NCBI RefSeq assembly: GCF_004010195.1
Contig: NC_057751.1
Coordinates: 9,367,611 to 9,431,610 of the forward strand
From: Chiloscyllium plagiosum
Lineage: Eukaryota
DNA length: 64,000 nt
Direction of reading: 5' to 3'
In this document: piece after piece, positions 1,919-62,078 of the stretch
How the letters are laid out: the number at the start of each line of letters is the position of its first letter
Numbering within the stretch: position 1 is the stretch's first letter
Position numbers and translations under genes: made by a program
Notes under the pieces: model-generated
Databases searched by the model: none
What the model saw: the letters and a program-made list of their open reading frames with translations, nothing else
Told to the model about the DNA's origin: nothing

Positions 1919-2133
1919 CTGAAGACAAAATACCGAATACTCGATTGACAGAATAGCAGCAAAAAAATTGGACTTAACATAATTGATCAAAGAAAACATT
2001 ACCTCAACTTAGGCAGCACAAGGGTTAACAACTAAGCTACATTCCATGTGCTTGGCTCACAAAAATTCCTAACTTGACAATTGATCAATAAGCTCATCTT
2101 AACTCTTCTCAATATAAACAGAATTTTGCATAC

Positions 2134-2858
2134 CATCGTGGAATTCTTTGAAGTGGTGTTAATCTTGTTCTTCATCCGAGAAGATCTGCGGGGTTCCTCA
2201 ATTTTGGGCTTTTCTGACAGGTATTCAAGTTGGACCTCTTGCTTAAATTTTGGGCTTACCTCCACACTTAAGCAGAGAGATGGCACTGAAAACATATTAA
2301 GACACACTGCATCAGTAGTGACATTCTGAATCCCCAGGCACGCACCTTCACCACAAGACCAGTTTTGCTCCCGTTCATTGGTAGATTCTTGAATGGACAC
2401 ATCGGTGATCTGAAGGTCACCATTTTCGTACTTTTCATCAAGTATACAAGTCACTTGTTGCACATCAGGCTGAACAGAGGATGCTGCTTTAATTCCACAA
2501 GACCCCAAGTCACTAATTGTACGAGAACACTTTGACTCATCCATTACCCTTGACAATTTTGACTCATTCACAGAATTGGTTTTCTTTCCACTAAGCACAT
2601 TTCGGCAAATGACATTGTTATCCCCAACTTGATTCTCTTTGCTATTGTGCTTCGATGAATGATCCACTACAACTTCTTTCACTTCTTCAACATTCATTTC
2701 CAAAACATCACAAGGATATTCATCATTTTTCATGGGCTTCTTCTGAAGGTTTACATTGCGTTCTGACATCGGAGACGACAGTTCAAGGTTGTTGGGTGCT
2801 GAACAATCTCTCTCTTCATTACCAAGCTTAGTTTCAGCAGTTCCATTTTCCATGTAAT
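2134..2858 (-). CDS. CDCA2: CDCA2-like large exon (725 bp, disordered Ser/Glu/Lys/Asn-rich region)
   Basis: Within the 300-aa ORF 2032..2934; acceptor tttttatgtag, donor ATG|gtatgc; phase 1 to 0. Confidence 0.75.
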
Positions 2859-3179
2859 CTACATAAAAACAAAATGTGAACGATTGACAAGTAATTTTCA
2901 TGCAAATTTCCCCCTTAGTTATGACTGCCCACATGGCTCACAATCAAGCCTGGAGATGAAGTGCACAATAAATATCAGCAAGTCATTCGATCTTGAATCA
3001 AGTCACAGTTCAGCACGAACTTACCTCACTTCTGGTCATGAACTCACCAGATATCAATGAACAATGAATTACTCCCAAATTCAGTGCTCTTCAAATCACT
3101 TATCAAAACTCAACCAATGCCATGGCTGAACTGAAGTGAATCCTCCATGACACAGTGTAGCTGCAAAAGTAGGTCAGAG

Positions 3180-6570: not shown

Positions 6571-7090
6571 AGTACATAGTAACCTCTTGCAGCCAATTGT
6601 TGCTGGTCACCACCGTCATCTTCCTACCGGTCAGCTGACTGTACATTTTCATCTGTCAGGAAACAAAGAACTTCCTTCACGTCACTCAACTTTTCCTTTG
6701 GTGATTTTTTGCCAGTTTCTTTTATTGTATTTCTGATTAATGAAGTACTTGAGTGTATTTTTTTATTATTATTAACTGGACTGAACTTCACTGCCATCTA
6801 CCTGCTTTGTGGGCTTTCAGATTTAGCAAGCCCTACTTTGAATTAACCTACCTCATTAAAATTCCCCACCAAGAGCTCTTTTCCCCTTCACTTTCACTAC
6901 TTCACATTGTTCCCACAGCATGTGGTATGATCTGTTTTTACTTAAACATGTAAATCATACACACTTCAAAATATGCTCTCATTTCAGATGAACTTCGCAG
7001 TTTGCCACTCTGGTTGCACAACAAAACTTCAAACCCTACAAACTTAATCTCTCAACTTAAACAGGCCCTCGTCAACCAACAGAAATTTAC

Positions 7091-7326
7091 CATTCGCGCT
7101 CCCAAACCGAATTGGACCAATGACACTTGCTTCTGAGCAGAAAGAGGACCTTCCCTTGACAACATCTTCTGACACATGAACGTTTCTCCCGCACGCAAAG
7201 GAGTGTTGGATAGGAGCCTTTTGTCAAACACTTCAGGACTCAGTTCTCCAAAAGTCACCTTTTTCTTCAGTGGTGGTTTACTTCCACTCAAGGAGAGGAT
7301 ATCACGTTGTTCTGAACAAGTTGGAC
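7091..7326 (-). CDS. CDCA2: CDCA2-like exon with the PP1-binding domain (RVxF and Ki-67/Repo-Man SLiM)
   Basis: KKKVTFGELSPEVFDKRLLSNTPLRAGETF; acceptor tttgtatttcag, donor ATG|gtaaat. Confidence 0.88.
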
Positions 7327-7679
7327 CTGAAATACAAAAATCTTTTTTTTGGGTGGATTTATGTAATCTTATTAACTGCTCACATAAAACTAAAATTTCA
7401 CTGGAAATGCAATGATGCCTTTCTCTTACAAAAAGTAATGACACCGACTCAAGATCACCAAACTAAAAACCAATCACTTGTCTCCCCTGTTGCCTGCTGA
7501 ACATCAACACTGTTTTAATGTTTATAAACCATTGTTGAATAACAGATTACTTGGTCCTTTTCATGATTAAGAATAACTTGTCCAATACATTGGCTACACC
7601 TTCAACCCAAATTAACACTGCTCTATGAAACATGCCTTTTGATTGATACAAATTTAATACAGCCTCCACTGCAAAACAT

Positions 7680-40631: not shown

Positions 40632-41074
40632 CTGATGGAAAAATACAGGAAATAAGGTACACCAAAGATGCAATTTATTTGCCCAACTCTCCACATCATA
40701 GCACAAGTTTTCCACTAAATCTACAGCTAATAGGAAAGAGGTTATTCCAATCTCATCGTCCATATTGTCCTAAATATATTCATACAGAAACTTTCTGCAG
40801 TGGTGTGCCACATCTTGTGCATGTACAACCTAAAATGCTTGATTGCCCAGCTCAACAGAAGAAATAATTGTGGCACTGACGAGTTTCCCTTTTAAAACAG
40901 ATTTCTTATAATATTTCACAAGTGCGAGCAAGTGTTTTTTATCCGCTATTTGATAGTTCTTTTTGTGATCTCTGATAGGAACATGCGAGTATGAGGGCTT
41001 TGCGGGGTTTGGGGCAAAGAGCATGTGTACGCGAGAGAAATCAAGCAGACAGCAGTTACCAACCAAGATTCTAC

Positions 41075-41316
41075 CTGGAATGTACCGGTAATTCTGAGTT
41101 TAGGACACATGCCAAAATGCTGAATTGTTCCAAGAATAGTTTCAGCCGGTAGCATCTATCAATGGAATTCACAAAGATTATGGTCTTGCCACGGACAAGG
41201 GAGAGTTTGAAAAATGTGTAAATCAGAAGGAATTTCTCCTCCTCCTCGCATTTAATGTGGTACTGGATCAGCTGTGAGCTATCCGGAAGCTGAGACTCGG
41301 TGAGCTTCAGAATCAT
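41075..41316 (-). CDS. DDX56: DDX56 exon 6
   Basis: [10 protein letters not shown]...[18 protein letters not shown]...ELPVHSR. Confidence 0.96.
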
Positions 41317-42100
41317 CTGAAAGGGTAAAGGAGATCAGGTTACAGTGGACACACCAAAACATAAAACAGGACATGTACCAGTCTGTTTGTCTGGCAATGC
41401 CCTATTCCAGAATCAAGCACTTCCATCTACCTTAAGTTCAGTAACACGAAAATGCAGGAAATAGATGCATTAACCCCTCATGCCTTCTCCACATTTCAAC
41501 AAGATAATGGCTGGCATTACATCTCCCTGAATGTAAAAACAATAAAATACTATCCATAATAATTATTTTTATCATGTCTGTCTCACTGCTCATAGGAATG
41601 AAATACCAATTGCATTTACAATACATTTGCTTTAGTGCTCATGGACAAACTGTCTTTGCACAAATTGAATATCATACAATTGACCAGACAAAGAAAGAAA
41701 TTGGAGTCATACATGACCTTTTGTATCCTCAAGAGACCACGCAGCTCATGTAAAATGAATTACTTTGTGAGAAATAGTCACCGTTTTCAGGGAAGACATA
41801 GCTCTCTGTGACTAACACATGCTAACCTGTCAAAATTCATTGTACACGAAAGACAATGCTGACCAAAACACAGGCAGAAATCCCCATTTGACTTCCACAA
41901 AATGAAATTGAACCTTTTCATACACATGGTGTATAGATAAATACATCTTCAGATTAAAGTGTCATCTAGAGCTATGAACACTCTTATCTCCTGTGTGGTG
42001 CACAGATTATGTGCTCAGTATCGAGACTGAGGACGGAAACAACAATTTCCTGTTTGAGACACAGGGAGAGGCCTCTGTCGCATTTGAGAAGATTTCTTAC

Positions 42101-42191
42101 CGGGTTATGAAGCACCAGTTCCTTCAATGTCTGAACATCCTCATTAAATGTGGCTGACATCAAGAATGCTTGGTAAATCTTTGGAAGGTGT
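42101..42191 (-). CDS. DDX56: DDX56 exon 5 (SAT motif)
   Basis: HLPKIYQAFLMSATFNEDVQ. Confidence 0.96.
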
Positions 42192-42746
42192 CTGCAAAGA
42201 GACAGAATAAGCCTTGAAGACAAGCAATCCGTTTAGCACAACCATAACCAAAGGGCCTCAATGTTACAGATACTGTAACAATCAAAAATATAATTACAGG
42301 CCAGGGGGTGAGGTCATGAGACTCCAGTAAAACAGCAGTGAAAGTAGCAATATTAGCACAGCGCCATCACTCAGTACACCTGACACACTGGTTTAAAATA
42401 AAAACATGGAGGTGCCACTTGGGACATCACACTCTTGTGAGCAGTTTGCAGGACCAACTTGACGAATCCCACAATCCACCTTTTCTCCACTTACTCTTTG
42501 CCCCTCTTGAACTTTCCATAATTCTGAAAGCCCCAATTGTACTTACTCTCAGACAATGCATTTCAGAGCCCAGCCATACATCTAAAAGAAATTCCACATG
42601 TTGTCTTTGCTTCTTTTGCAAATTGCTTTAAATTGGTGCCCTCTGGCAAAAACCTTTGCAATAACTCGAACAGTGTATCAATCTTCACTTTCTCCAGTTC
42701 TGTGATGACACTGAACCAACAGGAGTTTTGAGAAAAAGAAACTTAC

Positions 42747-46109: not shown

Positions 46110-47220
46110 GGTGCCGCACAAAAGGCTGCTACATCAGATAAATATGAAAGGCATTACAGGCAAAGTATTAGCTTGGATAGAGGACTGCTTAACTAACAAG
46201 AAGCAAAGAGTGGTGATAAATTAATGCTTTTCTGGTTGCAAATCAGTGACTGGTGGTGTGTCTCAGGGATCAGTGCTGGGACCGCAATTATTCACAATTT
46301 CCGTAGATGACTTAGAGTTGAGGACCATGTGTAGTGTGTCAAAGTTTGCGGAACACAATAAGATGAGTGGTGGAGCAAGGTATGTAGAGGACTGTGAAAC
46401 TTTGCAAGGGGACATCATTGGTTTAAGTGAGTGAGCAAAGGTATGGCAGATGGAGTACAATGTTACTGAATGTGAAGTCATCCATTTTGATAGGAATAAC
46501 AGGAGAAAAGATAATTATTTGAATAGTAAATTGAACTGGCTGTCCACAGGATCTGGGTGTCCTTGCGCATGAATCACAAAAGGTTGGTCGGCAGATGCAA
46601 CAGGTAATTAAGAAGGCAAATTGAATTTTGTCCTTCATTGCTAAAGGGGTTGAATTTTAAAGCAGAGACATTATCTTGCAGCTGTATAGGGTGCTGGTGA
46701 GGCCACACCCAAAGTATTGCATGCAGTTTTTGTCTCCTTACTTGAGAAAGGATGTACTGAGATGAGAGGGGGTGCAGAGGAGTTTCCATAGGTTGATTCC
46801 AAAGTTGAGGGGGTTGACTTATGAGGTGAGACTGAGTAGACTGGGATTATATTCGTTGTAATTTAGAAGAATGAGAGGATATCTTACAGAAACATAAAAT
46901 TATGAAGGGAACAGATAAGATTGAAGTAGAGAGGATGTTTTCACTGGTGGGTGAAACTAGGACAAAAGGGCATAGCCTCAAAATTAGGGGGAGCAGATTT
47001 AGGACTGAATTGAGAAAGAACTTCTTCACCCTAAGGGTGGGGAATCTATGGAATTCCCTGCCCAGTGAAGTAGTTGAGGCTTCTTCAGTAAATGCTTTTA
47101 ATGCGAATATAGATCATTTACTGAACAGTAAAGGAAATAAGGGTTATGGTGAGAGGGTGGGGAAGTGGAGTTGGGCCATGAAAATATCAGCCATGATTTT
47201 ATTGATCGAAGGGTCAGATG
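46110..47220 (+). mobile_element. CR1 LINE 3' third (RT to 3' UTR)
   Basis: GVSQGSVLGPQLFTI, KFAEHNK, TKGHSLKIRGSRFRTELRKNFFT. Confidence 0.9.
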
Positions 47221-48129
47221 TTTAAAAATGTGTTACTGGAAAAACACAGCAGGTCAGGCAGCATCAAAGGAGAAGGAGAATGTTCTGTGTACAGCTTTGA
47301 GACAATCCATCAATCCTGAGCCAGTTCATCAACAATGACACCTGTACTGCCACTTACACTGCACCCAACCAATGTTGAAGTAGACACTCTTCAGGTGCCA
47401 TCTTTCACCACTGGACTGATTCCTATCCACCACTGCCTCGTCCCACCTTGTCGTACCCACAATTTCTCAGTGCTGGGCCCATCTCAACATCACTGTGATG
47501 CCCTTCCACCACCACCAGTGCTGGCTCCAACCAACGATGAAGTTGCTGTTCTTCAGATGCCATCCTTCGCTGTTTGGCCTGCGTCGCCAATGTAGCAGCC
47601 ATCGATTCTGATGCCAGGTCCCATACCTACCTACTCTGGGATCAGAGGGTTTTTTATACAATAAGAAGCTGAGTAAGTTAAGTCTTCATTCCCTCGAAAT
47701 GGGAAGAATGAGAGGCGATTTCATTCAATCTGAAGGAACTTACAGTGTAGATATTAAGAGGTGTTTGACCTAGTGGATATGAAGAACATGCCTTAGGAGA
47801 AAGCGGGGGGACTGAAATAAGGAACTACTTATTCATTCAAAGAGCTGTGAATCTTTGAAATTCTCTCTCCAAGAACATTGTGAATCATCCATCATTGAAT
47901 GCATTTAAGGCTGCAACTGACATATTTTTGGTCTTTTGAGAGACTTGGGATGTACGTAGCAGGCAGGAAAGTGGACTTGAAGCTGAACAACAGCCATCAT
48001 CATATTGCATGGCTGTACAGAACTGAGCAGTCATGTTGTCTATTCTTTTGTTGTTTCTTACATTCTTATATTTGGGAATTTCTGAGTTGCTGTATGACTC
48101 AACAGCTTAGAGGAACACTGAAATGACCA

Positions 48130-48487: not shown

Positions 48488-48493
48488 TTTATT
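48488..48493 (-). terminator. Candidate poly(A) signal of the astacin-MAM gene
   Basis: AATAAA on the minus strand ~250 nt after the stop. Confidence 0.55.
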
Positions 48494-48739: not shown

Positions 48740-48895
48740 CTAACCCAAATGCGATTTGTTCCTTTTCTTCAGGCCTCGATTGCAGGTTGGGTTCCAGTGC
48801 TTCCAGCTTGAGTCACAGTTATTTCTGTAGATCTGTACGTCATCAATTGCAGCATCGCTCTGATAGCTTGGTCCCAGCACACCTTCGATAATCAC
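48740..48895 (-). CDS. Last coding exon (end of MAM, basic tail)
   Basis: VIIEGVLGPSYQSDAAIDDVQIYRNNC...GLKKRNKSHLG*. Confidence 0.9.
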   Translation of the reverse strand: MIIEGVLGPSYQSDAAIDDVQIYRNNCDSSWKHWNPTCNRGLKKRNKSHLG

Positions 48896-49898
48896 CTGAA
48901 AAGGTAAAAACAAGTCAGATCTGCCACGAGAAAAATATCAATTATTGGTAACAGATGTTAATGGCTCATTGAGACAACTACTTCACCTCAGCAAATGAAC
49001 AGAGAACAAACACAAGAGGGATTCAAGCCACTTGGCTCAACCAGTCCATGGTTATCCTCAATGTGAACACAGCCCTCTTCAGTTACACAGCCTGGTCCAA
49101 CATTTACTTCAAGCAACTTTCCAATTTACATGAAGTGAAGGATGCTAATTGCCCCATTTGGGGGTAATCAGAGACATGGATGGGTATGGGTCAAGGAGCT
49201 AGCCTCTGAAAGCTACCTTTTGCACCTCCCTCCAAAGATGATCTGTTGCTGGTCATTTTGCTGCATCATGAGCAGCCAGGCTGATGAGCGTAAAGTCCTT
49301 CTGGATTAATCAGTATCCAGGATATTTTGGACCAATCTGTTCAAAAAGAGGCAGCTAAGAATTTTTTGTAAGGTAAGCGTTTAAACTGCCTTTGCCTGCC
49401 CCAGAGGCTTATTGCCATTCTGTAAGGAATGCAAACTCTTGCAACCCCATCAGGTTGGTACCCTTGGCGTTGACCCGTAGCAGTGCAGAGAAGGACAGAG
49501 ATGTTTCAGAGTCAGTAACTCAAGCTTAAATTTGGTTCACAGCCAGGGAAATATTAAACGGTTTGCCCAACCCCATATCAGTGTGTTGTAAAATGCCTTG
49601 CATTCATGGGTACCTAGAATTCCACTCTCAAAAGCTAGAGTCTCAATCCACAAACAGCAATCACATCAATATCCAGTGAGCAGATGGATGCTTCAGGATA
49701 CATGAAAATACTCACTCAGCCTTCATTGCACCCACATCACCCACCTGGTCACTGCATGGCACAGTCCTCAGATGATAAAAAAAAACAAAGCATGCTGGTT
49801 GGTTTAACTACTTCTTACTTTTGGATTGGTTTATTTCTTCAACAGCTTGTACTTAGACACTTTTCCCACAACAAAACACAAATCATATTTTGACTTAC

Positions 49899-50029
49899 TC
49901 GGAACTTGTCTCCATTAGTGAAAATATCAATCTCAGCATTTAGCCATTTCCGACCTTGGTTTCCAGAGACAGACCACAGCTTGTGCCAGGAAGTCGTGTG
50001 TTCATATTTCAGGAATACATTTAAGGAAC
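49899..50029 (-). CDS. MAM domain exon
   Basis: SLNVFLK...LWSVSGNQGRKWLNAEIDI. Confidence 0.92.
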
Positions 50030-50564
50030 CTGCAGGAAAATGGATTCAAGCAGTCCATCAGCAGGTCCAACCTTCACCTGTATTTTTAACTTAGTAATTC
50101 CCTCATGGTGCCCTGATTAAAAGGCTTCCAGAAAGAGAAAGCAATTTGTAGCTGAATAGATGGGATCGAAAGTAAATCTAAGATTACACTGCTGTTTCCC
50201 CAAAATTCAGCAGCATCTATCTGCCTTTAGTGATCTTTCCTCATGTTCAGTCCTGTTCTGACACCCTCACAGAGCAATCTGGGCCAAACCATAATAGAAA
50301 CCAGGAGTACCTGCTGTTGCAACACACTCCAACCCCTCCACAATGCCCTTGACACATCATAAGCACTATCTAGATACATGCACTGCTTCTCATCCTCCCT
50401 GCTCTGCTTTCTCCATGCATTTGCCTATCGCCAAATGTCACAGAGTTATAAACAGCAGTTTTGTTACGTCACTGTTCTATTCTGGCAAGATATGAAATCA
50501 AATTGTTTCCATGAATTATTACAGGTTATGACCAGAGTTTGCTGCTCGGAGCCTCACAACTCAC

Positions 50565-50690
50565 CCATGTGTTTCCCAAACATATTGTACCAGAAGGTCA
50601 GGCACTTCTGTTCTCTCAGTGGAGGGCTGATGAGTGCTGCCTGTTCCCCACTCAGCTGAGAATATGAACCTTTCAGGTACAGATAATGAC
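50565..50690 (-). CDS. MAM domain exon
   Basis: HYLYLKGS...ALISPPL..KCLTFWYNMFGKHM. Confidence 0.92.
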
Positions 50691-51895
50691 CTGCAGTGAA
50701 GAAAAATTAATCAAACACACCATGGAGATAAGGCAGGAACAGGATACTGATAAGGAATGATCAGCCATGATTATATTGAATGGCGGTGCAGGCTCGAAGG
50801 GCTGAATGGCCTACTCCTGCACCTATTGTCTGTTGTCTAACTACTGTCAAAATATCAGAAATATGTAGCCAAAAATCTATTAGAATTGAGACTGTTTATC
50901 TAATTCTTGACACTTCTGAATTTACATGTTCTTGTTATGAATTCTGAATGTACACTTTCAAATCACAAAGAATTTTGAGCCCCACCATCATAAATTCCCC
51001 TTTCGTTACTTTGTTCCACTGAGCATATCCCACACCAGTCATCATCACCAAATCCTTCCGTTCCTACTTTCAAGTTTGTGAATCCACAAAGACATTTTCC
51101 CAGTGGTTCCGAACGCTACTATAAACAGGGACTCAGACTGCCCACTGCCTAACAATCAACAATTCCAGTACAGAAGTACAGCTGTCACATCACTGGACTC
51201 TGAATGCAGAGGCTGGACGACTAAGTTGTAGCTATGAGTTCCATCATTTTGAGAAATGAAGTCAAAGCAGAGAAATTGCTGGAGAAACTCAGCAGGTCTG
51301 TCAATGTCTGTGAAGACAGAAATAGATGTGACATTTCAAGTCCAGTGTCACTTTCCTTCAGATGCTGCCAGACCTACTGCATTTCTCCAGAATCTTTTCT
51401 GTTTGTTTAAGACGTCCAGCATTATCAGTATCTGCTTTTATGTGAATTGAAACCCACTTAATTCAATATTACAATCGCAAATTACCATCAGCAAAAATAA
51501 TCACAACTGGATTGACCTCAAATCCATTGGTTCACTCATTCTTGATTGGAGGGGAAATCTACCAACCATTCCTAACTGGACCAACACATAACTACTGACC
51601 CACAGGGCTGAAAAAATGTTGGGAAGGCTGCACACATAAATGATCATGGTAGCAACATCCACATCCTTTGAATGGTGAACTAATTTTTAGTCTCTTCGAC
51701 AGGAGAATAAACACCTCAAATACAAATGTGAGGTTTCTATTTCTAAACATTAATTAACCTTATTTCAGATTTACATACTCAGATCCTTTCATTTCTTTCT
51801 CTAGTCTCTGTCTGTTTTGGAAAAAAAAACACTGTTCCACACTTCCCTCTGTGCTGTCATGTTAATGGCTCCAAACTCATCAGATTTTTACTTAC

Positions 51896-54475
51896 CTCCT
51901 TGGCGTTTGCACTGGCCTTTCGTATGGTCACGTTTTGGTCCTGTTTCTCTTGAGAATGTTTGGTACCGATGAAGCACCCAATCAAAATCATCTGTTGTGG
52001 ATTGTTCCCAATCACACAGACCATGTTCAAAGTCACAAAACAGTTCCACAGGAAGGTTGTCAGGCAACACTGACTGAGTGGGAGAAATCAAAGGCACATT
52101 ATATAAGGGATTAATTGTCACAGGATTGTTGCGTGTCGTCAAAGTAAATGGAGAAATTATTGACTGGATGGTTGCTGCACTGTTGGCCACAAAGGAGAAA
52201 GATGCCAGGAGTATCTTTGGAGAAGAGGTGGATGCTAATACGGTCTCATTGGGGAGAATTGCTGTTGGCAGAATGTCTGTTGAGGGATTGGACACTGGCA
52301 AAGTGTCTGTAGGGGAAGTAGACACTGGCAGAGTCTCCACTGAGAGGGTAGACCCTGGCAGACTCTCCGCTGAGAGAATGGACACTGGCAGAGTCTCGGC
52401 AAGGGGAGTGGACACTGGCAGAGTTTCTGCAGGAGGAGTGGACACTGGCAGAGAGTCTGTGGGAGGAGTGGACACTGGCAGATCACCTGTGGGGGGATTG
52501 GATACTGGCAGAGCCTCTGCAGGGAAAGTGGACATGTGCAGAGTCTCTGCTGGAGTGGACACTGGAAGAACGAATGTGAGGGGAGTGGACACTGGCAGAA
52601 TCTCTGCGGGGGGAGTGGACACTGGCAGACTGTCCGCAGGGGGAGTGGACACTGTCAGATCATCTGTGGGGGGACTGGATACTGGCAGAGCTTCTGCAGT
52701 GGGAATGGACACTGGAAGAGTGTCTGTAGGAGGGATGGACACTGGAAGAGTCTCTGCAAAGGGGATGGACACTGACAGAGTGTCGACAGGAAGAGTGGAC
52801 ATTGGCAGAGTATCTCCAGCGAGAGTGGACACTGGCAGAGAGTCTGCACGGGGAGTGGACACTGGCAGAATCTCTGCTGGGGGAGTGGACACTGGCAGAG
52901 AGTCTGTGGGAGGAGTGGATACTGGAAGAGTCTCTGCATGGGTAGTGGACACTGGCAGAGTGTCTGCAGAAGGAATGGACACTGGCAGTGAGTCTGCAGG
53001 GGGAGTGGACACTGGCAGAATCTCTGTGTGGGGAGTGGACACTGGAAGAATCTCTGCGGGGGAAGTAGACACTGGCAGAGAGTCTGTGGGAGGAGTGGAC
53101 ACTGGCAGAGTCTCCACAGGGGGAATGGACACTGTCAGAGTCTTTGCAGAGTGGGTGGACACTGGCAGAATGTCCGCAGGGGGAGTGGACACTGGCAGAG
53201 TATCTGCGGGAGGAGTGGACAGTAGCAGAGAGCCTGTGGGAGGAGTGGACACTGGCAGAGTCTCCGATGGGGGAGTGGACAACAACAGGTTATCACCAGG
53301 TCGAGTGGATGCCCCCACTGTGGTTGGGGTGGACACCAGTAGGGTGCCCACAGGGTTAGGTATGGCTGTCAACAAAAGGTCACGTGAATTAAATGCCTTG
53401 TACCAATGAGCAGGGCTTCCAGTTTTCAGAAGAAAAGGCAGCTTTTTTTTATACGAGGACCCTGTCAGTGCCTTTCTCTGTGTCACCATTCTGTTATGAA
53501 ACTCTCTGAAAAGAATCTCAGGTGCTCCCATGGTTTCCTTTATTGAGATGCTGGCCTGCAGAGGCCTGGGTGGCATTTCAAACTGACTGGCTGGATTCAT
53601 TGATTTCAAGTGACCAGTCTTCTGTGTGTGACTGATCAGAGAATGAAAAGGTATTTTTTGTTGATGGCTCTGGTTTAGAATTAGGTCAGGAATAATCAAT
53701 GGATAAGTCAAATTGGTCAAAGTTGAAACCAGCCCAACTGACAGCACTGCTTGGTGAGCAACATTGCTGGTTTGTGCATGAGTGTCTGGAAGATCAGACC
53801 AACTGACTGGTCGAGGATCTTGCTGACCAGTGGTCAATAAGTCAGCCAGAAACCCCACTGTCGCTTGAGTTTGGGTGTCAGATTTAACTGTGTGCGGAGT
53901 TCCTGCCAATGATTCAATATGATCCGTTAGATTTTGGCTGTTTGGATGCAAAACATGCTCCTTGGTACAACATCTGACACATGCTTTGGGGCGGAGTGCA
54001 GGTCCTCGAGTCAGAGACCTCTGCGCCAATGTCGGGGTCATTACATGTAGAGGTGAGTGAGTGGTCAGTGAGTTTGTCATCGGACTCTGAGCAAAGGGCA
54101 AAAGCAGAAATGTCTTAGCTTTTCCTTTATGGATCTGTGCACTAATAGGCCTGCTCTGGCCCTCTGAGGCTTCAGTTGCTGATTCCTTGAATGCTGTGAT
54201 GATAGAAGTGTTGTAGACTTCAGGCCTTGACTTAATCAATTGGCTAATAGGTGCACATTTGCGTAGGAGAATGCACTTGGGATATTCATGCACAATGGCG
54301 ATGGTTTGATTCAATGTGGACGCATTCCCACGCAAACTCACCACCAGCTGTGCTGGTGTGTGAACTCTTGCTTTAGCTGTTTCAGGAGAAATATCTAAAA
54401 GAGGTTTTAATCTCTCTGCTTCTTTGGTTCTTCCAAGTTCACGCAAGGAACCACTTTCATTCAGCAAGGGAAGAC
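51896..54475 (-). CDS. Giant exon (2580 bp): linker, PTS mucin-like repeats and start of MAM domain
   Basis: 859-aa ORF; acceptor cccttag, donor GAG|gtaagt; ends FCDFEHGLCDWEQSTTDDFDW...GPKRDHTKG. Confidence 0.93.
52290..53345 (-). repeat. Coding minisatellite, ~35 x 30 bp (LPVSTPPAET)
   Basis: Plus-strand unit gtggacactggcagagtctctgcaggggga. Confidence 0.95.
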
Positions 54476-56203
54476 CTAAGGGTGTTTTGGGTGGGATGAG
54501 ATGGAAGGAAACGGAATAGTTAAAATCAGGATTTACAACTTCAAAATTCAGCTTATGTATTGAGATAATATAGAACGAAACAACTCAGTCTGCAATACCC
54601 ATGATGGAGCTATCTATTAGCAGTCCCTCAACTTGAGGAGGATGCTTGCCACAGAGTATGACGTGTAAAACACCATCACGTTGCAGGTGGGATGGTTGCT
54701 GCACAGCAACCACCACACAGTTCTGGCTGGTCAGGAAACATTTCCACTCCTCTTGCTAGCTATACATGTTTTAGAAGGATTTTTAGTTGACAATCAACCT
54801 ACTTCAGCCACCTTTTCAACTGAGCTTCGGACCTGATGGCCATGGAGGTTACCTGATTTGTTCTCAGCTCATTCTCCATAGCTCAGCAATATTCTGCCCA
54901 TCCAAATATTTCTCCAGCTCTCTTTTGAATGTGATCCTTGGATCTGCTTCCACCACTCTTTAGGCAAACAATTCAAGATACCACACAATGCATTTAAAAG
55001 AAAAACAAAACTGTTCCTCATGTTATTTCTTCATCACCTTCACTGTGTGTTCTTTGGTCATCAATCAGCCACTTTAACAACTTATCTACATTTATACCGT
55101 CAAGACCCTCGCCAGTATTGAACACTTAATCAAGTTTCTTTTGCTCAAAAGGCACAATCCTGAATGCAGATGAGTGGAACAAGTTAACAATTGAAAATGA
55201 TTATGTCCAAATGCATAGAAGAAAGAGAAACATGAACAATGCAGATAGAAAGCTGTGACTCAAGGCTGTTATGTGAAGGACATGGATTGGAATTGAAGAG
55301 AATGTGCTTAGACATGGCTCCTGCTATGTCACTGATATTGAACAGTTAAAACCAAATCAGAAGAGATCCAGGCATTTAAATCATAAGACAAAGTTTTCTA
55401 CTATTTGTGTTTGAACACAAACATTTGTTATGGGATCACGACCTTCTTATGCACAAAGACTTCCGTATCTGAAAGCTAGAAACATACACAAGCAGCAGAC
55501 TGTACCAACACTGAGATATATCGACATACCATTCTCCTTGTCCAATGTCATTCTTTATCAGACAGATAAAAGGATTCACTGTTCATTGAAGAACAGATGG
55601 ACACTATCCCGCATATCTAGCTAGAATAAGAGACATCTTCAAACCGCAAACCAACAATTATGTGTTTTCTATCCCTGATCACGTCAGGGGCAATGAATGT
55701 GAACCTAGTTTTATAGATTCTGGACATAGCTCTGGATTGAACCCTCCTCTCCTGCACATAATGGCAAAACAATCACCACCTGAAGGTGCAACTCCAGAAT
55801 CTTTTAATAAAACTGGAATAAGCTCCCACAAAAGCCTTTTAAAAATCTTAGGACAACACACCTACTTATCAGAGGCAAGACAGGTCAAGGAATTCTAATT
55901 CAGGAACGCTTCAAGCAACATCAGATTTTGGTTGGCAAAACCTAAATAACCATCAGCATTGTTTTAAAAAAAAAAGTTTTAATTCCCACCATCCCAAATA
56001 AAGGATTCAGGTACAAGAAGAAAGCCAGTGTTAGGTGAGAAAAATCACTGGAAACATATGACATGAAGTGGGATCTGAACAGAAAAATCCCAAAAAATAC
56101 AAATTTGTTCTGGTCACAAACAAAAACCAGCAGAAACTTTGAGTGACTTCTTCTTTGTTTCTCACACACGTTAAATAAGATTGATAACCATTTGCAGTCT
56201 TAC

Positions 56204-56364
56204 GTTTCAATACATTGGCCTTATCTTTGAGATGCATGGTGCAGTTGTATAGTCGATTAACCTTCAACAAGTCGAGCTCACTCAGGCGGTTTCGCTGGCC
56301 AATCACAGTATCTGTATCTATTAGTGGTCTCAGGGTTGGCTGTCCATTCTTGGAAAATGCAGTC
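56204..56364 (-). CDS. Astacin-like exon, end of catalytic domain
   Basis: TAFSKNGQPTLRP...IGQRNRLSELDLLKVNRLYNC. Confidence 0.93.
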
Positions 56365-56519
56365 CTACAATTGAACAAAAATTTTCATGTATATTAAGTC
56401 ATGTCTTGTGACTGAAAACTTGCATCTTATCACATCAATGGCATAACAAGTCCCAAGGAGCTTCACTGTTGCGTTAGCAAATAAATTTTGAAACCAAGAC
56501 ACATCATAAGCTCTAAGAG

Positions 56520-58200
56520 TAGATAGAGTCATAGCCATAAAGGTCCACAGCAGAGGAAAATGCCTTTCATTCCACTCAGCCAATGTGGGTCAAAAACAAC
56601 CAGCTAACTATTCTCATTCCATTTTCCATCATTTAGCCCAGAGGCTTGCATGTCTCTGCATCACAAGTGTACCTCTGAATACGTCTTTAATGTTTCGAGG
56701 GTTTCTGCCTCAACCACCCTGACATGCAGGAGGTTCGAGATTCCCACCATCCTCTGGGTGAAATCATTTTTCCTCACACCCTCTGAAATGCCCCTAACCT
56801 TAAATTGATGCTCCCAGTCATTGATCCTCTCCATGACAGGGAGAAGTTTCTTTCGTCAACTCTGTCCATGCCCCTCCTAATTTTATATTCCTCAATCATG
56901 TCCGCCTCAGTCTCCTCTGCTCTAAGGAAAACCACCCCAGTCTGTTCAATCTCTCTTCCTAAGTAAACGTCTCCAGCCCAGGCAACATGCTAGTCAATCT
57001 CCTCTGGACCCTCTCCACTGCAATCACTTCACCCTCTAACTTGTATTCCACAACTGTACACAATACACTAATGCAGCCTAACTAATCTTTGATACATTTC
57101 CTGTGTCATCTCCCTGCTGTTAAATCCTATGCCTAAGCTAATAAAAGGCGAGTATCCCACATGCTTTCTTAACCATTTTATATTCCTGTCCTTCTACTTG
57201 AAGGGACCACTGGGCATGGACACCACGGTCCCTCTGATTGTTGGTGCTTCCCAGGGTTCCACCGTTAGTCATGTATTCCTTTGCCTTTTTTTGACCCACC
57301 AAAGTGCATCACCTCACGATTATCTCGATTGAATTCCATTTGTCAATGATCACCCATCTGACCAGCCTATTTATATTCTCTGTAATCTAAGGCTATCCTC
57401 CGCATGATTTACCAGCATACCAACTTTCATATCGTCCACAACCTTAGTGATAAACCCTCCGACATTCAATCTAGATCAAGTATATTTACAACACACAACA
57501 AGGGCATCAACACGAATCCCTGGAATAGGCTTCCAGCCACTTGGCTATTTGTAGTTCCAAGGAGCCAAATTTCCTTGGATTCCATGCTATAGGTTTCCCA
57601 TGTGGGATTTTGTCAAAGGCCTTGTTGACATGTTGGACCACATGCAGTTTGATTCTGATCTGCAGAATTGCTTCCAATAGTTTCCTCATCACACATTAGA
57701 TTAACTGGCCTGGAGTTTAGTTTCTCCCTTGCTCCCTTCTTTAATGACAGTACCACAATGGCTGTCCACCAGCCATCTAGTACCTCTTCTGTGGCCAGAC
57801 AGAAACTCAAAATTATTTCCTGCTATTTCCTCACTTGCTTCACTCAACAGCCTGGGTTACATTTCATCAGGCCCAAGAGATATGTCTACTTTAAAGTCGA
57901 TCCAAACCTCCTCTCTGCATCAATTCCTTGAGGTAAATCACAGTTCTTCTCCCGCATTGCTCTTCCCACACTGTCTCTCTCATGAGTGAATACGGACACA
58001 AAACATTCATATGGAACTATGCCCGCGTCCTCTTGCCCCATGCACAAATTATTAGCATAATCCTGAATGGTTCGACTCTTTCCCTAAGTAACTTTGCAAT
58101 CTTAATGTACTTGTAAAATATCTACATTCTTTCCTTTATTTTACATTCCATTATTTTCTAATGCCCCCTTTTGGTCTCTTAATTTCCTTTTTAATTTTAT
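56520..58200 (-). mobile_element. Decayed CR1 ORF2 3' half
   Basis: KKGAREKLNSRPVNL, KAFDKIPHG remnants. Confidence 0.75.
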
Positions 58201-58336
58201 CTCTTGTACATATATGCTCCTCCACAGTTTCGCCAAAAGCTTGCTCAGAGGAGGAGATTTAAAGAATTACTTTATAAATAAGCAGAAAAGTAGATATTTA
58301 GGGAAGAAATTCAAAAACACAGGGCACAAGTTTATT

Positions 58337-58630
58337 CACAGAATCCCTGCAGTGTGGAAGCAGGCCATTTGGCCCATCAAGTCCACACACACCCTCCAAA
58401 GAGTATCCCATGCAGACCCACCCCTTCCTACCCTGTCCAATCTCTGTAACCCTGCATTTCCCATGGCCAATCCACCTGAGCTGCACATCAATGGACTGTG
58501 AGAGGAAACCAGAGCACCCACAGGAAACCCAAGCAGACACGAGGAGAACTGTAAACTCCATACAGACAGTGCCTGAGGGTGGAATTGAACCCGGGTCCCT
58601 GGCGCTAACCACTGAGCAGCCATGCTGCCC
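58337..58630 (-). mobile_element. HE1-type V-SINE
   Basis: tRNA head GGTTCAATTCC, V-domain, HER1-like tail. Confidence 0.85.
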
Positions 58631-59093
58631 ACAAGCAACAAGAAATCGTGCAGCAATGAAAATCAAGGAGGCCCAAGATGCAGAATTAGTGTGGAGCAGA
58701 CAGTTTGGAGAGTTTTTGGGTGGGAGAAAGTATCAGAGATAAGGAGGGGGTACAGGAAAGCAACAATCAAGAATCTTTGTCAACAGCGTGCTGGATTGTG
58801 GGCTAATGTCAGCCAGCTAACACAAGGGTGATGAGTGAATGGATTTGATGTAATTTAAAATCTTAACATAAGTTTTGGATACGTTCAAGTTAACAGTGAA
58901 TGCAAAGTTGTGGCTAACATGCAGATTAAGAATCGCAGGAACTGCAAAAACTGCATCTCATTTCAAGGTGTTGCAGCAGACGTGAACGCATTACAAGTCC
59001 CACTGTTCAGACTGCTGCTCCTCCACATAAAGGTATAAAGAGAGAGAGAAGTGGCTTACCATCTCCCATATACCACCTCGGCACTATTCTCAC

Positions 59094-59175
59094 CTGCTGT
59101 AGTGTAAAATGGAGCCATAATCATATTTGGTCTCGAGATTGTTCGTGTTTTGTTTCAAGAAATTATGTTCATAAC
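59094..59175 (-). CDS. Astacin-like exon with the Met-turn region
   Basis: YEHNFLKQNTNNLETKYDYGSILHYS. Confidence 0.93.
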
Positions 59176-60031
59176 CTGAAACAGAAGCCAGGAAGTCACT
59201 GGTACACACGAGCGAAACACAATTATACTTCATTGAGATATTTTTGTCCTTCAGCATGTTCTGATCAACTAAAGAAAAACTCTACTAAAAATCAAAGGGC
59301 ATCCAACAAGTCAACAGATTTATTCCAGTTTAGTAGCTTGAACTTTAATCACTCTTCTCTTTCAACAGAACCAATGGACAGTGGTTAATCCAGTTTATAG
59401 CAGCTTTTTTCTCAGATTCACACACCTTGAAGAAATGTTTGATTGGTACAAAGCTGCTTTGCCCTTCTCTGGCAACACTTCCAAAGAAGGGTGTGTAAGT
59501 AAATATTACAGTACTGGGGCAGATCTTGGCTTAATGAGTGCTTCTTTCAGGAACTGGAGGGATTGATCAGATGGAAGTCCTCATGATAATTAAATGGTTT
59601 AATGGGGCAGCAGTGGAAAAGACATATCTACTTGTTATTAGCACCAGAACTAAGGGACATAAATGCAAGATAGTCAAAATATTTCCAATGTGGAATTCAG
59701 GAAAACTTTCAGTGTCCAACCAGAGCAACCAGAGGTATCATTCAAGCAAATACTTTAGATGCATTTCTGGGAATCTAGATAAAAAGGGAAAAAAGAACAT
59801 GTAGATATATTAGTAGTATTCGACAGCGAAGGGCAGCAGAAGGCTCACAGATGGCATATCATAGACTTCGACCTCTTGGGCCAAATGCCTATTTGTGTAC
59901 TGTGAATATTTTTCATAGTCCCTGGCACAGAAAACCCATGAGCTTACCTTAAGCTTCAATTTGCTGCTGACAGGTTGATAATGCACATTTGTATAAAGGG
60001 GCAAGGAATTAAGGGGAAGAAAACACTTTAC

Positions 60032-60213
60032 CAGGCCATACATTCTTCCACTCAATCTTGATGTATTTGCCCCGGTCACTCCTCGCATGCTCATGCCAGA
60101 AGCCAAGTGCATGCATAATCTCGTGTTCAACAACACCCTTCCCCTTCTTCAGGCACTGGTGATTCAGTGACATGAGCTGCATTCCACCAACACGGCCTAC
60201 AGATGAGTAACAC
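60032..60213 (-). CDS. Astacin-like exon with the zinc-binding motif
   Basis: [10 protein letters not shown]...[31 protein letters not shown]. Confidence 0.95.
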
Positions 60214-60583: not shown

Positions 60584-60866
60584 TAGATTAGAGTGGTGCT
60601 GGAAAAGCACAGCAGTTCAGGCAACATCCGAGGAGCAGGAAAATCGATGTTTCGGGCAAAAGCCCTTCATCAGGAATAGAGGCAGACTGCCTGCAGGGTG
60701 GCCTGCATCTCTCCACCTTGCAGGCACTCTGCCTCTATTCCTGATGAAGGGCTTTTGCCCGAAACGTCGATTTTCCTGCTCCTCAGATGCTGCCTGAACA
60801 GCTGTGCTTTTCCAGCACCACTCTAATCTAGAATCTGGTTTCCAGCATCTGCAGTCCTTGTTTTTA
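60584..60866. mobile_element. Palindromic Penelope-derived insert with two opposed hammerhead motifs
   Basis: Arms ~60582-60700 and ~60712-60832 are near-perfect reverse complements; 16-bp TSD cccataacatttgatc at 60568 and 60867. Confidence 0.88.
60737..60772 (+). ncRNA. Minimal type I hammerhead ribozyme motif
   Basis: CTGATGA-a-GGGCttttGCCC-GAAA-c-GTC. Confidence 0.75.
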
Positions 60867-62078
60867 CCCATAACATTTGATCACCTTGCTTATCAAGAAC
60901 CTATCTATCTCTGTTTTAAAGATACTCAATGACTTGGAATCCACATACTTCTGAGGCAATGAGTCCTACAGATTCACCAGTCTCTGGCTGAAGAAATTCC
61001 TCCTCATCTCAGTTCTGAAGGGTCATTCCTTTCACTCTGAAGCTGTGTCTTCAGGTCCTAGTCTGCTCTCCTCATGAAAACATTTTCTATGTGCCTATTT
61101 GAGGGCCTCTCAGTATTTTGTAAGTTTTGATGAGATCTCTCCTCATCCTTCTAAACTCCATTGACGACAGACCCAGAGTTGTCAACCACTCTTCCTCTGA
61201 CAAGCCCTTCATTCTCAGGATAATTCTTGAAAACCTCTGCTGGACCACTCCCAAGACTAACACTTCCTTCCATAGATACACGGCCCAAAGCCATTCACAA
61301 TGTTACAAATGCAGTCTCACCACAGCCTTATACAGCCTCAGCACCAAATCTCTGCTCTTCTGTTCGAGCCCTCTCAAAATAAATGCAAACATTGCATTTG
61401 TCTTCCTAACTCCCAAGTGAAGCTGCATGTTAGCCTTAAGCGAATCCTGAACTCGGACCTACCCATTTAGAAAATAGTCTATGCCTCTATCCATCCTATC
61501 ACAAGTGCCTAAGCTCAATGCTTCCCACATTGTATGCCATCTGCCACATCTTTATCCACTGTCCTAGCCTGTCCGAGTCCTTCTGCATCCTCCCTGCCTC
61601 CTCAACACAAACCTCTTGTCATCTGCAAACCTTACAATAATCCCCTCAGTTCCTTCATTCAGATTGTTCATGTATCACGTGAATAGTTGTGGTACCAACA
61701 CACACCCTTGTGGAACTCCACTTGTCACCAGATGCCATCCTCTTGGTCCCCATTATCTGTCTTTTGCCAGTCTGCCAATCCTCTATCCATTAGAGTACCT
61801 CACCTGTAACACCATGGGCTCTTATCTTAATTTGCAGCCTCCTGTGCGGCATCTTGTCAAAGGCCTTCTAGAAATCCAAACAGATCAGGTTCACTGGCCC
61901 TCCTTTGTTGAATTTGCTTGTTACCTCCACAAAGAATTCTGATAGATTTGTCAAGCATGACCTCCATTCTCTGAAGCCATGTACTTCCAAGTACTCCACA
62001 AACTCATTCTTCATAATGAACTCTGAAATCTTATCAACAACCAATGTCAGGGCAACTGGCAGATAATTTCTTGTCTTG

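Follow-up and report, generated by a model that had tools for sequence, protein, structure and literature searches.

The 64,000-nucleotide (nt) window analyzed here, from the shark Chiloscyllium plagiosum (contig NC_057751.1, positions 9,367,611 to 9,431,610), carries on its minus strand a gene for an astacin protease with a long mucin-like stalk and a MAM domain. From comparison of sequences, we conclude that this gene is probably the shark orthologue of ovastacin (ASTL, or SAS1B), the protease responsible for hardening the egg coat in mammals. That it keeps the ancestral full-length form of ovastacin and also has a role in egg granules is a reading that we favor with less assurance. Seven exons from 60213 to 48740 splice into a chain of 1,138 amino acids (aa) plus a TAG stop with no internal stop; AG is present at 7/7 acceptors and GT at 6/6 donors, and the phases are consistent. 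A preliminary description of the window had given the gene exactly these ends and the order astacin, linker, repeat, MAM, and basic tail, which the in-phase chain and the Pfam matches confirm. It had also set the protein outside the known classes and had taken ovastacin to lack a MAM. Neither claim survives as written: the layout occurs from lamprey to marsupial and is best read as that of an ovastacin family member, and the lack of MAM is true of placentals only, since frog, lizard, turtle, and marsupial clade-mates carry stalk and MAM.

Probable kinship with ovastacin

Homologues were collected with the zinc-motif exon and shark orthologues and mapped by profiles built from the matches, with Pfam spot checks; all architectures compared are predicted gene models. 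A search across architectures, which the preliminary description had proposed, found the layout in models from lamprey, chimaera, sharks, bichir, frogs, lizards, turtles, and a marsupial. Protease, stalk, and MAM stand in one model in Heterodontus (stalk of 873 aa, 4 isoforms), Pristiophorus (998 aa), Callorhinchus (800 aa), Lampetra (271 aa), Polypterus (536 aa, two MAMs), six frogs including Xenopus tropicalis (250 to 552 aa), Podarcis, Pogona, and Mauremys (1,172 to 2,342 aa), and the marsupial Sminthopsis (1,445 aa). In Amia and Polyodon the MAM sits on a short linker. Pfam recognized the MAM in the 1,915-aa Sminthopsis protein (expect value [E] 5.6e-19) and in the 972-aa X. tropicalis protein (E 2.3e-17).

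The models of Stegostoma, Rhincodon, Chiloscyllium, Rhinatrema, Anolis, Paroedura, and Trichosurus showed no MAM, nor did 6/6 eutherian models (two of them partial), 2 canid models searched with Pfam, or 10/10 batoid (ray and skate) proteins of 197 to 435 aa. Some of the absences among models are plainly annotation breaks. The Stegostoma and Rhincodon models stop within the stalk, and in Cetorhinus the MAM is annotated as a separate model. Together with the split or short public models of Callorhinchus (RefSeq) and Antechinus and an older X. tropicalis pair, and with the batoids, these cases would suit the idea that astacin and MAM exons are parts of two different genes, or that the main transcript ends ahead of the MAM. 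We give that idea very little weight. A 2,580-nt exon (54475-51896) joins the stalk and the start of the MAM within one 898-codon open frame, every junction of the chain is canonical and in phase, a catshark isoform links the protease to the MAM exons across the stalk, and single models span the whole in Heterodontus, Pristiophorus, Callorhinchus, lamprey, frogs, reptiles, and marsupial.

The spacing of the catalytic motifs was treated as a discrete character, in steps through Cys2, Cys3, the first His, the Met-turn, and Cys4. In mouse ovastacin these residues are C153, C172, H182, M236, and C281 (PMC12281054), a spacing of 19/10/54/45, and the window protein has exactly this spacing. It recurs in 21/25 domains from chondrichthyans, 16/16 from mammals, 21/23 from sauropsids, 3/17 from amphibians, and 1/5 from ray-finned fishes, and in none of the hatching-enzyme-type (0/4), meprin (0/18), other (0/66; 0/88 for these three together), or lamprey (0/6) domains; these counts include isoforms and near-identical rows, 12 incomplete domains were dropped, and unlabelled rows were grouped by resemblance. 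The 19/10 pair alone is found in 25/25 chondrichthyan, 16/16 mammal, 23/23 sauropsid, 12/17 amphibian, and 1/5 ray-finned rows; elsewhere it occurs in 0/4 hatching-enzyme-type, 0/18 meprin, 1/66 other, and 0/6 lamprey rows. A two-residue insertion before the zinc motif and the full spacing group sharks with tetrapods and set hatching enzymes and lamprey apart.

A tree of the propeptide and catalytic domain (39 rows) placed the tetrapod proteins and eutherian ASTL in one clade (support 100/99), with the position of the shark unsettled. When the MAM was added (34 rows), ovastacin, hatching enzymes, shark, and lamprey formed a clade (100/100) that excluded meprins and the astacin-MAM proteins of invertebrates; amphibian, sauropsid, marsupial, and eutherian rows formed one clade (100/100) in species order. 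On this alignment the approximately unbiased (AU) test rejected shark plus meprin (P = 0.0031) and shark plus hatching enzyme (P = 0.0147). In the MAM-only tree the shark MAM was sister to the tetrapod stalk-MAM proteins (Shimodaira-Hasegawa-like approximate likelihood ratio test, 81), and the meprin MAM was distant. The catalytic domain of catshark scores 242 bits with lamprey, 236 with marsupial, 235 with rodent, 217 with dog, 191 to 195 with the hatching-enzyme type, and 144 to 155 with meprins, which speaks for kinship with ovastacin. The orthology of the tetrapod stalk-MAM proteins to ASTL is, on these alignments, well supported, and because the two make one clade, the placental enzyme has probably been truncated.

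The proposal that these are meprin-like proteases minus the TRAF, EGF, and transmembrane domains follows the database name "meprin A subunit beta-like." It draws on the combination of astacin with MAM, on a MAM loop Cys that aligns with the meprin loop Cys, and on a 2023 review that, in the text available, treats the S-PRO-CD-MAM proteins of lamprey and hagfish as meprin-like (PMC9848320). We consider it scarcely credible. Besides the AU result, catalytic identity is 37 to 45% to meprins versus 48 to 55% to mammal ovastacins, rays have true meprins, and the shark protein is without TRAF, EGF, or a transmembrane segment. The data also suggest that these shark proteins have been mislabelled as "meprin beta-like." The preliminary description's separation of the protein from meprins and tolloids agrees with the rejected meprin clade and with the lack of these domains and of CUB. 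As for the catalytic-domain phylogeny that it had suggested, meprin kinship is rejected once the MAM is added; the catalytic domain alone leaves the shark unplaced.

Several points, beginning with the makeup of the spacing counts, weigh against orthology with ovastacin. The tree groups were labelled only after the first trees had been inspected, and the hatching-enzyme-type outgroups number 3, with no shark among them and without MAM data. On propeptide and catalytic domain alone the AU test rejected nothing: P values for four constraints were 0.052 (shark plus meprin), 0.10 (shark plus hatching enzyme), 0.07, and 0.07. One of these constraints, a group of sharks, tetrapods, and ray-finned rows, cost 8.8 log-likelihood units (P = 0.07). 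The shark-tetrapod clade is in the best tree, but its node support is only 52/42. Polypterus is placed among the hatching-enzyme-type rows, and on a long branch the Xenopus hatching enzyme falls amid those of ovastacin type. Shark proteins are also the top match of a teleost hatching enzyme, because slow shark evolution inflates similarity scores. Astacins have acquired MAM domains on many occasions (PMC4545420, in the text available). In the shark protein the Met-turn has Leu, and a KR dipeptide right after the catalytic domain, present in several sharks, is absent from chimaera, lamprey, and tetrapod rows. Stalk-to-stalk BLAST of 13 rows gave matches only within groups and none between classes, and eutherian and marsupial tails showed no similarity; descent of the ovastacin tail therefore rests on position.

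Some of these points would fit a paralogue, the survivor of an ancestral vertebrate astacin-stalk-MAM gene behind both ovastacin and hatching enzymes, rather than a one-to-one counterpart of tetrapod ASTL. The unsettled shark-tetrapod node is of this kind, as is the failure of the ray-finned members to make a single group in the trees. The best non-chondrichthyan match is a lamprey protein with the same Met-turn Leu, yet without the two-residue insertion. We regard a paralogue as improbable, given the insertion and full spacing shared with tetrapods and left out of hatching enzymes and lamprey, and the position of the shark MAM beside the tetrapods. Sharks also have their own, separate astacin, a six-Cys C6astacin bearing CUB (PMC8812170, in the text available, whose supplementary tree includes ovastacin and may bear on novelty). 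Orthology with ovastacin is the likelier reading.

Variant architectures were seen among the collected proteins. In Scyliorhinus isoform X3 most of the stalk exon is skipped and the protease is joined to MAM exon 2, and the turtle-like record P0166 is a similar short form. The fish-like proteins P0195, P0140, and P0135 have two or three tandem MAMs that group with those of Polypterus (99); P0195 has a divergent astacin domain and could link stalk-MAM astacins to alveolin-like genes. The lack of MAM in batoids may be a second loss parallel to that in placentals, or it may reflect annotation breaks.

Gene model, stalk, and surroundings

Coordinates are given in Table 1. The zinc-motif exon is 98% identical to the Stegostoma model, and the closest proteins are those of carpet sharks. 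Over its full length the chain can be aligned with the Heterodontus model (55.5% identity over 1,203 columns); to the Rhincodon model it is 82% identical over 654. Upstream acceptors for the 2,580-nt exon at 54589-54538, which lie in the open frame, were rejected: 54475 reproduces the junction that orthologues have, and read contigs from two sequencing runs count against them by an insertion of 2 bases at 54560. Exons for the signal peptide, propeptide, and first part of the catalytic domain were not found in the 64-kb window (tblastn, best E 0.71), and secretion is therefore deduced from the orthologues. The catalytic domain that the preliminary description had reported is present, but the window holds only its C-terminal 130 aa.

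Table 1. Features of the astacin-stalk-MAM gene, in window coordinates
Feature	Position	Strand	Pfam match
Catalytic-domain exon: Cys pair and zinc motif, model aa 1-60	60032..60213	-	Astacin, E 3.7e-23
Exon with Met-turn region SILHY and zinc-binding Tyr	59094..59175	-	
Exon with end of catalytic domain (GQR, closing Cys) plus 12 aa	56204..56364	-	Astacin, E 9e-07
2,580-nt exon, 5' part: non-repetitive linker, about 395 aa, predicted unfolded	53282..54475	-	
2,580-nt exon: 34 x 30-nt repeat, 10-aa units like ETLPVSTPPA, mucin-like, acidic	52266..53281	-	
2,580-nt exon: spacer of about 76 aa from repeat to MAM	52038..52265	-	
2,580-nt exon: first part of MAM, in a single open frame with the stalk	51896..52037	-	MAM, E 1e-06
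MAM exon 2	50565..50690	-	
MAM exon 3	49899..50029	-	
Last exon: end of MAM, tail Cys, basic tail, TAG	48740..48895	-	
AATAAA about 250 nt past the stop, candidate polyadenylation signal	48488..48493	-	

The window protein matches Pfam Astacin and has the zinc motif HExxHxxGxxHE with the family Glu; the zinc ligands, catalytic Glu, Tyr ligand, and S1' Arg are kept. The Arg, which other astacins share, lies 28 residues past the Met-turn position. At the xxRxDRD position after the family Glu, the window protein and Stegostoma read RSDRG and most other chondrichthyans RSDRD. Where the Met-turn is expected as SxMHY, the window reads SILHY, with the Tyr kept and Leu in place of Met. Leu is present in every row compared from chondrichthyans (25/25), lamprey (6/6), and amphibians (17/17), and Met in nearly all amniote and ray-finned rows; from these alignments the change appears conservative and clade-wide, if unusual for metzincins. 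Shark orthologues have four catalytic-domain Cys, versus the six that define C6astacins (PMC8812170, in the text available); the first of the four was read in the orthologues only, its exon lying outside the window. The best solved relative is the zebrafish hatching enzyme 3LQB (E 6.6e-56).

The stalk between protease and MAM measures 825 aa. Its non-repeat linker, put at about 360 aa in the preliminary description, is about 405 aa long. The linker is moderately rich in Pro, Thr, and Ser (fractions of 0.22 to 0.40 per 50 aa, versus 0.50 to 0.56 in the repeat), and AlphaFold gave no fold for 397 aa of it (mean predicted local distance difference test score of 35.8, from a shallow 8-row alignment). 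The repeat array (52266-53281) has 34 copies of 30 nt with 76% matches and encodes 340 aa, with P 0.21, T 0.16, S 0.15, and two basic residues; about 80 aa separate it from the MAM. The MAM (model aa 956-1114) has a Cys in the loop aligned with the meprin loop Cys, plus a tail Cys. The stop follows 24 aa past its closing Cys, and this 24-aa tail is basic. A hydropathy scan found no transmembrane or glycosylphosphatidylinositol-type tail in the 1,138-aa chain (the highest 19-residue value, 1.58, lies within the linker), as the preliminary description had supposed in denying a membrane anchor.

The repeat unit varies by shark lineage: it is 10 aa here, 9 aa in Pristiophorus, and mixed in Heterodontus, with flanks that still align. 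Such variation suggests fast, independent turnover of the array between shark lineages. A 443-codon plus-strand open reading frame at 52078-53409 was considered as a gene and rejected; it has no Pfam match and is an antisense shadow of the coding repeat.

Directly downstream and on the same strand lie DEAD-box helicase exons (41071-42232, minus), which may be DDX56-like. Farther downstream, at 7052-7462, there is a CDCA2-like gene, with E 7.7e-08 to Repo-Man versus 0.005 to Ki-67; 7052-7462 and 2032-2937 (minus) comprise a CDCA2/Repo-Man-like PP1-binding exon and a nearby 301-codon frame. The CDCA2/Repo-Man-like frame reads KVTFGELSPEVF, one residue shorter than in human. CDCA2, DDX56, and the human ASTL-region genes presumably lie on one bird microchromosome, unlike the hatching-enzyme locus, which we offer as a lead; the literature searched yielded no paper on synteny of the locus. 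Very high-copy interspersed repeats (depth 1e5 to 1e6) occupy introns and flanks at 47084-47667, 50720-50840, 58340-58640, and 60590-60870. The flanking genes of alveolin, as far as the available text of PMC12186722 gives them, differ from the neighbors in the window.

A possible role in the egg

Mouse ovastacin is stored in granules under the direction of the propeptide motif DKDIPAINQ (PMC12281054, in the text available). In shark orthologues the propeptide AEDAIVRINQ..P..SFLIEGDIIKP, with the Asp switch in EGD, aligns with mammal DKDIPAINQ..PESSFLLEGDILRP, and D, I, and INQ of the granule motif are kept. By analogy with the rest of the family, secretory granules of the egg itself are the likelier site; nothing found favors the mucus, egg case, or hatching gland that the preliminary description had named. 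Its suggestion of a secreted protease with an extended O-glycosylated stalk seems likely to be right.

We envisage the following course. Signal peptide and propeptide would be encoded upstream of the window, as in shark orthologues, and the secretory granules of the egg would hold the enzyme as a zymogen, with activation at a basic site ahead of the mature N terminus. At fertilization it would clip ZP proteins of the egg envelope. O-glycosylation would make the stalk an extended spacer, and the MAM may bind or oligomerize and so tether the enzyme and hold the tail; meprins dimerize via one MAM-MAM disulfide (PMC3573791, in the text available). A cut just behind the catalytic domain could free its roughly 200 aa, as in mouse, where the severed C-terminal region remains at the egg membrane (PMC12281054). 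In several sharks the KR, here created at the junction after exon 56364-56204 just past the catalytic domain, may serve as the release site. On the placental stem the MAM and most of the stalk would have been lost, leaving a C-terminal region of about 150 aa; human and mouse ovastacin have 431 and 435 aa (PMC12281054) and are listed as S-PRO-CD-LC (PMC9848320 supplement).

An ovastacin orthologue could instead have worked outside the egg in sharks, as a mucin-tethered secreted protease of mucosa, oviducal gland, or skin, the egg role arising later, in bony vertebrates or tetrapods. Only mammals provide a demonstrated function for the family, an acidic mucin-like repeat would suit mucus, and only part of the mouse granule motif is conserved, with a similar D-x-x-x-IN in propeptides of meprins and other astacins. 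We think this unlikely, if the least so of the alternatives. The propeptide stretch is well conserved from sharks to mammals, and a frog cortical-granule astacin-like ZP2 protease and medaka alveolin (PMC7155028, in the text available) make the egg role of this branch look old.

Sharks are physiologically polyspermic. A sperm block is therefore an unlikely purpose, a point against the favored reading, and conditioning of the envelope is likelier.

The broadest form of the egg-granule reading has, we judge, about an even chance: that ovastacin is a pan-vertebrate egg-granule protease of protease, mucin-like stalk, and MAM, shortened in placentals; that its Xenopus orthologue cleaves ZPA/ZP2; and that a lamprey-type ancestor also gave rise to hatching enzymes. 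If so, the enzymes that harden and dissolve the egg coat would be sisters. X. tropicalis XP_031755136.1 (XENTR_v10009510) becomes a named candidate for the frog ZPA/ZP2 protease, which a 2020 review lists as unidentified (PMC7155028) and a 2025 review presumes to be no ovastacin orthologue (PMC12281054). The latter also states, in the text available, that the origin of the ovastacin C-terminal region is unknown and that ovastacin is not orthologous to non-mammal astacin-like proteins, a remark that may mean only hatching enzymes named astl. The shark gene and its relatives likely challenge both points, as judged from sequence: the puzzling tail would be the remnant of a stalk, with its shortening likely dated after the marsupial split. 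The literature searched, to which subscription papers such as the 2004 description of ovastacin and the alveolin phylogeny did not belong, held no description of a MAM-bearing ovastacin. The orthology may nevertheless be implicit in databases, given that the NCBI product name of the tetrapod stalk-MAM proteins is already "astacin-like metalloendopeptidase."

Comparison with known astacins

The lamprey and hagfish S-PRO-CD-MAM astacins have the same domain list and may include the lamprey genes compared here. The available text of PMC9848320 mentions no stalk in them and ties them to meprins; our lamprey proteins have a 270-aa Ser/Thr stalk and fall inside the ovastacin/hatching enzyme clade. 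MAM-bearing non-meprin astacins are given from invertebrate species only in the available text of PMC4545420. Medaka alveolin and the Xenopus ZPA/ZP2 protease are egg-granule astacin-type enzymes that trigger envelope hardening (PMC7155028), the role presumed for the shark protein; alveolin is listed as S-PRO-CD only (PMC9848320 supplement).

Meprins alpha and beta likewise combine astacin with MAM and have a Cys in the same MAM loop. Their MAM, however, lies 11 to 26 aa (about 11) from the protease, versus 825 aa in the shark, which is without MATH/TRAF, EGF, and transmembrane segments. Hatching enzymes and C6astacins (HE, C6ast4/5, nephrosin, pactacin, and patristacin) share the vertebrate clade (100/100), but the shark protein differs in its four rather than six Cys, two-residue insertion, stalk, and MAM, and in having no CUB by Pfam. 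Ovastacin of mouse and human differs in its shorter stalk (about 150 aa versus 825 aa in the shark) and in lacking the tandem repeat, the terminal MAM, and the Met-turn Leu. It shares with the shark protein and its orthologues a four-Cys astacin domain of identical spacing, the S1' Arg, a similar propeptide (in shark orthologues), and a low-complexity disordered region after the catalytic domain with no anchor.

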